7,722 bases of DNA, from the IMG/VR virus record IMGVR_UViG_2541047896_000002. One strand, 5' to 3'. Positions 5,092 to 7,385 of this stretch are shown here, one piece after another; within the stretch, counting starts at the first letter, position 1, and each line of letters opens with the position of its first letter. Position numbers and translations under genes: made by a program. This DNA comes from a virus (taxonomy: Monodnaviria; Loebvirae; Hofneiviricota; Faserviricetes; Tubulavirales; Inoviridae). The notes below the pieces were generated by a model, which was not told where the DNA came from, ran no database searches, and saw only the letters and a list, made by a program, of their open reading frames with translations.

Positions 5092-6126
5092 ATGGCTATT
5101 TCTGCGTATGTGGGCATTCCCGGAAGCGGTAAATCTTACGAAGTGGTGGCAAGCGTCATTATTCCCGCCTGTATCGCTGGGCGTCGCATTGTCAGTAATA
5201 TTTACGGCCTTGCCACGCAAAGTATTTATGATTACTGCGTTGATATTAAAAAGGCAGACAGGGAATCACTTGGTGAAATTTTACTTGTTCAGAATGAAGA
5301 CGTTCAGAACGATAATTTCTTTCCCTACAAAACGGATTCAGGCATTGCGGATGATACGTTCTGCCGTCCGGGGGATTTAATCTGTATTGATGAAGCATGG
5401 CGCATATGGGAGAGCGATAAAGGAATCCCCACAAATCATCGCTCTTTCATTGCAGAACATCGTCATTTCGCTGATGAAAAGACAGGCGTGACCTGCGATT
5501 TAGTGGTTATGAATCAGTCTGTTGCCAACCTTCCGCGATTCATCAAAGACCGGGTGGAAACCACGTATCGCATGAGTAAGCATGTGGCGCTGGGGCTGCA
5601 TAACCGTTACCGGGTTGACGTATTTACGGGCATCAAGCTGTTTAAGTCGAATCTGACGAACAGTTATCAGAATAAATATGACAAGGCGATATTTCCTTTA
5701 TATAAATCCCATGAGAACGGGCAGGGAAGGGAGCTTGTCACTGATAAACGCCAGAATATTTTCAGTTCTAAAATGCTGTGGTTTAAAGCCGCCGGGTTAC
5801 TGATTCTGGCGGTAATTGCCATTTTTTATCTGTTCTGGTTTTTCACGTCAAACGGTAGTTCAGAGCCTGAACAGCAGACAAAAGTTTTACCCGCCGGAAA
5901 TAACACTGTGGTTTCAGTTCCTGCTGCGCCAGTTAAGCCCGTTGTCTCGGACAAATGGCGGCTTGCCGGACGGCTTAAACGCGATGGTCAGGCGTGGGTT
6001 GTCGTGGCTGACACGTCCGGGAGGCTGCGTATAGAGCCGGCTTCTCAGTTCAGCTTTGACGGCATGATGATGACGGGTGAAATCGACGGAGAAACGGTGA
6101 CGGTTTATTCAGGGGCGATACGATGA
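5092..6126 (+). CDS. Zot-like / pI-family phage assembly NTPase
   Basis: N-terminal Walker A P-loop GIPGSGKSYE at residues 8-17. Single transmembrane helix near residue 225 (LWFKAAGLLILAVIAIFYLFWFF) followed by a periplasmic C-domain. Its stop overlaps the start of the secretin gene (ATGA). Confidence 0.85.
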   Translation: MAISAYVGIPGSGKSYEVVASVIIPACIAGRRIVSNIYGLATQSIYDYCVDIKKADRESLGEILLVQNEDVQNDNFFPYKTDSGIADDTFCRPGDLICIDEAWRIWESDKGIPTNHRSFIAEHRHFADEKTGVTCDLVVMNQSVANLPRFIKDRVETTYRMSKHVALGLHNRYRVDVFTGIKLFKSNLTNSYQNKYDKAIFPLYKSHENGQGRELVTDKRQNIFSSKMLWFKAAGLLILAVIAIFYLFWFFTSNGSSEPEQQTKVLPAGNNTVVSVPAAPVKPVVSDKWRLAGRLKRDGQAWVVVADTSGRLRIEPASQFSFDGMMMTGEIDGETVTVYSGAIR

Positions 6127-7385
6127 AGCTGATAACAGGTTTACTTTTTTTACTGGTTCCGGGGCTGGTTATAGCGAAGGGCGTCAGTCTGGAGCTTAAC
6201 GCCGTTCCGCTGCCGCAGGCGCTGAACATGATTTATGTTCAGGTGTTCGACAAGCCTTTTATGCTTGACCCGGAGCTTGCCAAATCTGACAAGGTGGTGA
6301 CGTTCCGTATCACGCCGGATATCGATGAACGGGCATTCATTAAGCGCTATCTCGGCAACATGAACATTGCGATTTACAACAAACAGGGCATCGATTACGT
6401 GGCACCATTCACGCCTAAAGCGTATGTGGCGCCGCAGGAAACCTTTGTTTATCGGCCTCGCTTCCGTTCCGTGGCGTATTTGTCGGATATTCTGGCCGGG
6501 CAGTTTACGGGGCAGTTTAATAGTCAGCGTAATTCGTTACCGTCCGGGCAGATCTCGCCGGAAGCGGCTGTAGCAGGTACGGCATCGGACTTTATGAACC
6601 GTACCGGGGATGTGCTGGTTTATTATGGCCGGAAGTCAGAGATTAAGCGGTTGCAGACGCTGTTACCGCTGATTGATACCGCTTCTGAGGAAGTTATTGT
6701 CGCCGCTTACGTGTTTGAGGTTCAGACCAGCGAGCGTAACGGCTCAGGGCTGGCACTGGCGGCGAAGCTGCTTTCCGGCAAGCTGAACATTCAGATTGGC
6801 ACGTCCGGCGGTTTTGACAACTTTATCCGGGTGAATACCGGCTCTCTCGATGCGCTGTATGAGCTGTTCAGGACGGACAGCCGTTTTCATGTCGTCAGTT
6901 CCCCGCGGCTCAGGGTGAAGGATGGTGCGTCAGCCACGTTTTCAGTTGGTAATGAGGTTCCGGTGCTGGGTCAGGTGAGCTACGCCGACAACAGGCCGAT
7001 ACAGTCGATTGAATACCGTTCCAGCGGCGTTATCCTCGACGTGAAGCCGCAAATCCGGACTGACAACATTGACCTTGTGATTAAGCAGCAGCTTTCCAGC
7101 TTTGCGAAGACAGATACGGGCGTGAATAACAGCCCGACGCTGATTAAGCGTGAGGTTAATACGGAGGTCTCAGCGGCTGACGGGGATATTATTCTGCTGG
7201 GTGGCCTGGCTGAATCTAAGGTCACGAACGCCGATACCGGATTCAGTTTCCTGCCGAAAGGCTGGCTCTCCAGTTCGTCCGACGAGAAGAACAAGACGGA
7301 TATCCTCGTCGTGTTACAGGCGAAAAAAGTCAGGCGCGCCAGCGCCGCGCACGCACCGAGTTCCCACGAGGAGCGCGCGCGGTGA
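6123..7385 (+). CDS. pIV-like secretin (phage export channel)
   Basis: N-terminal signal peptide (MKLITGLLFLLVPGLVIA). The C-terminal region LLGGLAESKVTNADTGFSFLPKGWLSSSSDEKNKTDILVVLQAKKV resembles the end of M13 pIV (...GTPFLSKIPLIGLLFSSRSDSNEESTLYVLVKATIV, from memory). It is followed by an unusual GC-rich tail, RRASAAHAPSSHEERAR. Confidence 0.85.
   Translation: MKLITGLLFLLVPGLVIAKGVSLELNAVPLPQALNMIYVQVFDKPFMLDPELAKSDKVVTFRITPDIDERAFIKRYLGNMNIAIYNKQGIDYVAPFTPKAYVAPQETFVYRPRFRSVAYLSDILAGQFTGQFNSQRNSLPSGQISPEAAVAGTASDFMNRTGDVLVYYGRKSEIKRLQTLLPLIDTASEEVIVAAYVFEVQTSERNGSGLALAAKLLSGKLNIQIGTSGGFDNFIRVNTGSLDALYELFRTDSRFHVVSSPRLRVKDGASATFSVGNEVPVLGQVSYADNRPIQSIEYRSSGVILDVKPQIRTDNIDLVIKQQLSSFAKTDTGVNNSPTLIKREVNTEVSAADGDIILLGGLAESKVTNADTGFSFLPKGWLSSSSDEKNKTDILVVLQAKKVRRASAAHAPSSHEERAR

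Follow-up and report, generated by a model that had tools for sequence, protein, structure and literature searches.

CTXphi, a filamentous phage that integrates through host recombinases, lacks gene IV and leaves the cell through EpsD, the secretin of the host type II secretion system (T2SS). Where filamentous phages encode a secretin of their own (pIV, the product of gene IV), induction of the psp (phage-shock) response and a role as receptor are textbook properties of that protein. Several described phages combine a secretin with integration at dif. In YpfPhi and CUS-1, which insert at dif, YPO2279-YPO2280 make up a "secretion module" (PMC4266046), and the YpfPhi secretin appears in a 2023 paper as "GspD2", a protein without N1 and N2 that is proposed to act with Zot in phage release (PMC10354491). 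UPphi901 also integrates at dif and counts gene IV among its nine core genes (PMC7307601). Here we analyze the IMG/VR virus record IMGVR_UViG_2541047896_000002, a stretch of 7722 bp assigned to the Inoviridae (hereafter the window, meaning the whole stretch at its full length), and in particular its open reading frame (ORF) at 6123-7385 on the plus strand. We estimate a probability of about 90% that this ORF represents gene IV, encoding a pIV homologue, in a complete inovirus of 7722 bp that has CUS-1 and YpfPhi among its relatives. An earlier note on this DNA had proposed a phage-encoded exit pore combined with integration by the host Xer recombinases, and both parts are supported by a pIV-type secretin that follows pI/Zot and by copies of the phage next to dif. 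The same note set the phage against CTXphi; that contrast is correct as established knowledge but is the wrong yardstick for novelty, and the surprise that it implied, an own secretin together with dif integration, had already been published for UPphi901 and YpfPhi/CUS-1.

The encoded protein is a complete pIV-like secretin, as had been proposed, on the evidence of profile and fold searches. The Pfam Secretin family (PF00263) matches residues 250-400 (E 1.5e-24, 87 bits against a cutoff of 27.5 bits), and PHROG_1012, "assembly (protein IV of M13)", spans nearly the full protein (residues 4-405 of 420 on profile positions 5-402 of 403, E 2.5e-135). Searched with phmmer against the PDB, the protein matches several GspD C-terminal domains, and f1 pIV (7OFH) over residues 163-403. 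When a structural model was compared with the PDB using Foldseek, all 43 significant matches were secretins (among them InvG of the type III secretion system, PilQ, GspD, BfpB and f1 pIV, and isolated N0 domains), with a target template-modelling score (TM) of 0.63 to f1 pIV.

Orthologues of this gene are named "type II secretion system protein GspD" by RefSeq/PGAP, and the best phmmer scores in the PDB belong to GspD C-terminal domains (60 bits versus 51 for f1 pIV). On that basis the gene could be taken for a host T2SS secretin, GspD, that serves protein secretion and not phage export, a reading we find scarcely credible. The GspD equivalog TIGR02517 scores 117 bits where 351 are required, and its alignment is confined to profile positions 408-592 of 600, whereas the profile that matches from end to end is that of the pIV PHROG. 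At 420 aa the protein is shorter than GspD of K-12 (650 aa), and it has neither the N1/N2 repeats nor the S domain; Pfam finds three Secretin_N stretches in K-12 GspD and none here. In pairwise BLAST, the pIV proteins of IKe, M13 and If1 score 84, 75 and 70 bits, K-12 GspD 54 bits. The neighbors are all phage genes, with no gspC or gspE-M among them, and the gene lies within a tandem-repeated 7.7-kb mobile inovirus unit. This placement draws on pairwise scores and domain architecture, with one non-phage secretin in the comparison. The automatic "GspD" label on these genes is thus, judging from their sequences, most probably wrong, and a pIV homologue remains the preferred identification.

The protein begins like other pIV proteins. 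Its N-terminus (MKLITGLLFLLVPGLVIA followed by KG) has a basic start (MK), a 16-residue hydrophobic core and V-I-A at positions -3 to -1, and the predicted signal peptide aligns with the cleaved leaders of M13, If1 and IKe pIV. The signal peptide anticipated from the sequence is therefore supported by inspection and by alignment with known pIV leaders, which together define the call. It is of the predicted Sec type, covers residues 1-19 (6123-6179, plus strand; MKLITGLLFLLVPGLVIAK) with cleavage near the VIA-KG junction, and has no lipobox cysteine.

The domain organization was examined in an AlphaFold2 model built on 50 homologues. The model has a helix at residues 2-15, a first strand from residue 23, a compact alpha/beta unit at 23-95 followed by a poorly modelled linker, a second alpha/beta unit from ~165 and then long beta hairpins at 255-402. 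The first unit is a predicted N0-like periplasmic domain (residues 23-95; 6189-6407, plus strand; predicted local distance difference test, pLDDT, 87-91). It superposes on N0 of GspD from enterotoxigenic Escherichia coli (4jtm; TM 0.75, root-mean-square deviation 2.2 Å over 81 residues) and also matches XcpQ N domains, and an N0 motif ELN..PL just past the signal peptide is common to the secretin and Ff pIV. The second is a putative N3-like ring-building domain (residues ~165-237; 6615-6833, plus strand), in which strand-helix-strand-helix elements are modelled at 165-220 and homology to f1 pIV (7OFH) begins at 163. The secretin beta-barrel/gate domain (residues 250-400; 6870-7322, plus strand) coincides with the PF00263 match and carries the SxPR, VGxxVP and LLGG motifs. 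Columns invariant between this protein and Ff pIV are S259, P261, R262, G276, V279, P280 and L358-G361.

The gene is intact and tightly joined to the gene before it. The ORF opens with ATG, encodes 420 aa and has no internal stops. Read from the sequence, its coordinates and the ATGA overlap at 6123-6126 are exactly as previously claimed: the secretin start codon (ATG, 6123-6125) runs into the TGA that ends the Zot/pI gene (6124-6126). An AGGGG Shine-Dalgarno-like motif (6111-6115, plus strand) lies 7 nt upstream of the ATG. An identical ATGA overlap is annotated in a relative from E. coli A37 (L014, 2945-2948), while genes I and IV overlap by 1 nt in E. coli UTI89 and by 20-23 nt in M13 and If1. 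Phages of this kind generally place the stop of gene I close to the start of gene IV, and the ATGA overlap would fit a translational coupling between Zot/pI and the secretin. As a separate observation, five database proteins of 511-673 aa, for example a "putative phage secreted protein" of Salmonella Typhi, carry a Zot or gII domain together with a Secretin domain in one ORF. Such proteins may have arisen by frameshifts where stop and start overlap, or they may be artefacts of annotation.

The window corresponds to a single inovirus unit of exactly 7722 bp, the whole genome. Because the 7722-bp period recurs exactly in public genomes, with 3-9 mismatches to the window, the window must have been cut at the recombination point. 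Near-identical copies occur singly or in tandem (arrays of 1 to at least 3) in several Enterobacterales genomes, and so few mismatches over the unit in different hosts point to recent horizontal spread. A perfect 28-bp dif (GGTGCGCATAATGTATATTATGTTAAAT) directly follows the last copy in eight of the loci, including that of E. coli G5. The dif-flanked prophages stand in five or more independent genome contexts, and the genes around them fall into at least four different sets. At the left end, and wherever two copies meet, there is a hybrid dif-like site, GGTGCGCATAATGT joined to TTGACTCGTTATGTTGAAA.

The corresponding phage attachment site (attP; 2-95, plus strand) consists of two inverted dif-like sites, delimited by inverted repeats (4-14/83-93 and 22-45/58-81), by a single-stranded DNA (ssDNA) fold and by the junctions in ten loci. 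Site 1 (2-34, plus strand) reads GGTGCGCATAA-TGTTTGACTCG-TTATGTTGAAA and has an 11-nt spacer; site 2 (68-95, minus strand) reads AATGCGCATAA-TGACG-TTATGCTAAAG. As ssDNA, bases 2-95 fold into a hairpin of -31 kcal/mol (z -6.8), and none of 200 shuffles folded as well. The right end of the phage unit, TTATCTGCGCAC (7710-7722, plus strand), abuts T plus dif in prophages, as seen in the junctions of four loci. In the circular or tandem form this end, together with T-GGTGCGCATAA (1-12), makes a further imperfect palindrome that resembles a XerC arm. A direct search of the window for E. coli dif with up to 3 mismatches gave no match; the phage dif-like site, with its 11-nt spacer, was found by reading the sequence and by an inverted-repeat search.

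No recombinase or integrase family matched any of the ten largest ORFs in Pfam or PHROGs. This result, the dif-adjacent prophages and the hairpin attP agree with the proposal that integration uses host recombinases, and we infer, by analogy, that it depends on XerC and XerD. The attP is of the CTXphi type and agrees with the description of YpfPhi (PMC4266046). With dif regenerated at one end and a hairpin attP, the element appears from its sequence to be a CTX-type XerCD-dependent integrative element (IMEX).

The dif region holds other elements as well. Directly across dif from the prophage (L001 13844-19141 in G5 and L005 11825-17041), two tyrosine-recombinase genes are followed by a gene for a ~787-aa protein, which has no family matches. 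The recombinase pair and the ~787-aa gene are arranged alike in the two different genomes, and the block looks like a separate mobile element parked there. In E. coli O8:H8 strain 16F5M1D1, the dif region (L013 15613-16102) contains a different secretin-encoding inovirus. Two dif-like sites are also present there, both degenerate, and the one that occupies the place of dif departs from the consensus in 4 of its 28 bases (AGTGCGCATAAGACATATTATGTTAAAT).

The prophage might instead be a defective remnant, with a secretin ORF that is decaying or has been domesticated and no longer serves phage export. There are signs of such decay among relatives: the secretin of E. coli 16F5M1D1 is disrupted and loses similarity past residue ~354, the Zot-secretin fused ORFs occur among database proteins, and early stops are reported in UPphi genomes (PMC7307601). 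We nevertheless consider this very unlikely for the window. All its core genes are intact, in the canonical order gII-gV-gVIII-gIII-gVI-gI-gIV, and exact 7722-bp units with 3-9 mismatches stand in arrays of 1 to at least 3 in different hosts. The secretin has a ratio of nonsynonymous to synonymous substitution rates (dN/dS) of 0.015 against the E. coli G5 copy and 0.045 against the episomal relative in E. coli A37, and an exact-protein look-up recorded the identical 420-aa protein in 287 public assembly blocks; because of these two results, we do not regard the gene as a pseudogene. The frameshift or truncation that the earlier note had named as evidence to the contrary is absent from this uninterrupted ORF, and the gene is under purifying selection. 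Members of the secretin cluster that are at least 90% identical come from Klebsiella michiganensis, Salmonella enterica, E. coli, Citrobacter and Enterobacter. The close relative in E. coli A37, whose secretin is 90.5% identical, is present as a circular episome, a 7439-bp "plasmid" that is evidently the replicative form, and additionally as a chromosomal copy. A scan of species-representative genome contigs with the secretin returned only three distant secretins from metagenome-assembled genomes, the collection evidently being without the prophage.

Several points weigh against a functional pIV homologue in a phage of this kind. Neither Pfam N0 (PF21305) nor Secretin_N (PF03958) was detected in the secretin at E ≤ 1, whereas both are detected in M13, If1 and IKe pIV; of the two Pfam domains that the earlier note had named as a check, the Secretin domain (E 1.5e-24) was therefore found and Secretin_N was not. 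In relatives of the secretin, PF03958 remains below threshold (E 5.8e-4 and 0.067). The confidence of the structural model is moderate (mean pLDDT 73, predicted TM 0.51), residues 135-143, 226-231 and 368-388 are poorly modelled, and global TM-scores to solved secretins are low (0.3-0.4). An "IPLIG" segment near the C-terminus, conserved in Ff pIV, is absent from this secretin family, so details of gating or assembly may differ; the region of the missing segment is also the least confident part of the model. The basis for translational coupling, moreover, is the 4-nt overlap.

The divergent N-terminal domains and the missing IPLIG are common to the described CUS-1/Ypf group. Given that N0 and N3 are invisible to Pfam and that IPLIG is deleted, the CUS-1/Ypf-like secretins might be a structurally reduced subclass, and such a reduced channel might assemble and gate differently from Ff pIV, largely independently of the host. 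If true, a host-independent channel could help explain the near-identical phage copies at dif in several genome contexts, and likewise the relatives of at least 90% identity across Klebsiella, Salmonella, Escherichia, Citrobacter and Enterobacter.

The closest described system is CUS-1/YpfPhi (CUS-2; E. coli O18:K1:H7 and Yersinia pestis), for which the comparison was made directly on the genome of E. coli UTI89 (O18:K1:H7). The UTI89 prophage sits between hipA and a perfect dif. Its Zot gene precedes one for a secretin of 414 aa, which shares 56% identity with the window secretin over its full length. Like the window, these phages regenerate dif at the right end, and the attP sites are near-identical (GGTGCGCATAATGTACGACTCGTTATGTTGAAAAGGCCGCTGCG in UTI89, GGTGCGCATAATGTTTGACTCGTTATGTTGAAAAGGCCGCTGCG in the window). 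Both have tandem arrays, leftward accessory/regulatory ORFs and the order gII-gV-coat-gIII-DUF2523-Zot-secretin, and their secretins, YPO2280/"GspD2" included, are short (~415 aa) and without N1/N2. However, UTI89 and the window share only ~67% nucleotide identity over parts of the Zot-secretin region, the replication proteins differ in length (350 aa in UTI89, 371 aa in the window) and annotation, the accessory ORFs next to attL and attR differ, and the genome is 7.7 kb in the window and 8.7 kb in YpfPhi.

The UPphi viruses are likewise dif-integrating tandem inoviruses, of ~7.5 kb, in E. coli, Salmonella, Klebsiella, Citrobacter and Yersinia (PMC7307601). Their structural and assembly genes are reported to be ~70% identical to those of IKe and I2-2 (Shapiro & Putonti 2020, PMC7307601), whereas the window secretin is ~28-30% identical to IKe/I2-2 pIV, and only over residues ~140-404. 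Assignment of the window phage to the UPphi viruses was therefore rejected, the secretin being ~30% identical to IKe pIV compared with ~70% for UPphi.

Ff (M13/f1/fd) pIV resembles the window secretin in its place after gene I, its predicted signal peptide, its predicted N0-N3-secretin organization, its length of ~420 aa and its lack of a lipobox, and the SxPR, VGxxVP and LLGG motifs are shared. The two differ in that identity is 24-28%, the N0 and N3 domains of the window secretin are too divergent for Pfam, five residues ("IPLIG") are deleted, and there is a non-conserved basic C-terminal tail (residues 405-420); the Ff phages, unlike the window phage, do not integrate. CTXphi shares with the window phage integration at dif, which in the latter is predicted to use XerCD, and likewise a hairpin attP of two inverted dif-like sites (PMC4266046), a Zot-family pI and the lack of a recombinase of its own, but only the window phage carries a secretin.

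The closest deposited phage genomes are uncultured gut-metagenome contigs, "Dulem virus 52/53" and "Inovirus D_HF2_82/D_HF5_61", whose secretins, encoded beside a Zot gene, share 51-52% identity with the window secretin across 93-96% of its length. A megablast search of the window against the phage collection gave only a 64-bp match to the If1 intergenic region, so at the nucleotide level the deposited phage genomes are all distant. DNA relatives of the Zot-secretin pair occur in ~177 of 5426 complete E. coli genomes. A literature search found no paper that names the lineage, which, from its sequence, appears to be distinct from the CUS-1/YpfPhi and UPphi groups and unnamed.

By analogy with these systems, the phage would leave the cell by the standard pI-pIV pathway and integrate by the CTX-type Xer route. 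The secretin would be exported via Sec and, by homology with Ff phages, shed its signal peptide of ~19 residues, and would then form a multimeric, gated outer-membrane beta-barrel that has no lipid anchor. On the periplasmic side, its N0 domain may dock on the C-terminal periplasmic part of the pI/Zot ATPase, the probable inner-membrane partner, and the coat-wrapped ssDNA filament would be extruded through the channel without lysis. For integration, bases 2-95 of the (+) strand would fold into a forked hairpin that mimics dif, which host XerC/XerD would recombine with chromosomal dif as they do for CTXphi. The predicted outcome is a prophage, often in tandem, just upstream of a regenerated dif.

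The remaining core genes were assigned using Pfam, PHROGs and the RefSeq annotation of the E. coli G5 copy, and all are on the plus strand. They encode the gII replication protein (371 aa; 873-1988), the gV ssDNA-binding protein (2005-2295), ORF89 (89 aa; 2313-2582), the gVIII major coat protein (2594-2842), a gIII-like protein (2907/2928-4790) and a gVI-like DUF2523 protein (4801-5088). Gene I, which encodes a Zot-family assembly ATPase of 344 aa (5092-6126; Pfam Zot, E 9.5e-24; PHROG_197), precedes the intact 420-aa gene IV-like secretin (6123-7385; Pfam Secretin, PHROG_1012 and fold search). Two small ORFs on the minus strand (102-368 and 561-749) have no assigned function. In the window, an Rfam search gave a single sub-threshold chance match, a promoter scan was at chance level (13 found, 13.2 expected) and a terminator scan found 17 sites where 8.5 were expected.

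Parts of the genome vary or are shared with other elements. The structural and assembly genes recur, at 94-96% identity, in some E. coli genomes and in one 272-kb plasmid, where they accompany a different replication gene, annotated "replication initiation factor domain-containing protein", which indicates that replication modules are swapped between inoviruses. In E. coli G5 and NCTC9040, the final ~175 bp of the unit (7548-7722) are exchanged for an unrelated ~122 bp (L001 5879-6000), annotated there as a 43-aa ORF, while E. coli SW071618 has the window version at 98.7% identity. Like YpfPhi and CUS-1, the phage thus has a variable cassette beside attR. A ~55-nt intergenic segment between the two leftward ORFs (485-540) matches ~670 E. 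coli records at ~90% identity, and 424 places lie on plasmids. A counterpart with 87% identity is found in the "major intergenic region" of phage If1, and the segment may belong to an origin.

Just past gene IV lies a non-coding stretch of ~120 nt (7430-7550), which forms three short hairpins. It is present, with at least 80% coverage and 80-90% identity, in at least 1359 PLSDB plasmids; 1202 of the 1559 matching records are typed conjugative, and most are from Klebsiella, Escherichia and Salmonella. Its neighbors on an IncX4 mcr-1 plasmid are hicB on one side and the relaxosome gene taxA on the other; on a plasmid of E. coli G5 it is surrounded by ArdA, SprT and LPD29 genes, in what resembles a leading region. 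The element carries no annotation in any of the records examined. Its position matches that of the Ff minus-strand origin, so it may be a shared single-strand initiation signal, and it could be a common replication-initiation signal of this kind exchanged between phages and plasmids. The combined proposal, that CUS-1/Ypf-like secretins are a reduced, differently gating subclass and that this element is an exchanged initiation signal, is a conjecture that we think is probably not correct.

As a discovery the finding carries little weight, because an own secretin with host Xer integration is documented for YpfPhi/CUS-1 and UPphi, and the window sequence is already in hundreds of public genomes with automatic annotation. 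The RefSeq label "GspD" on these ~420-aa genes is misleading, as they are probably phage gene IV homologues and not T2SS components. Since the lineage is nearly unchanged in several Enterobacterales genera, it could be used as a marker to trace how inoviruses have spread recently. Ff pIV is known to make the outer membrane leaky and to stress the envelope, and by analogy the phage-borne secretin would be a possible source of both effects in lysogens.

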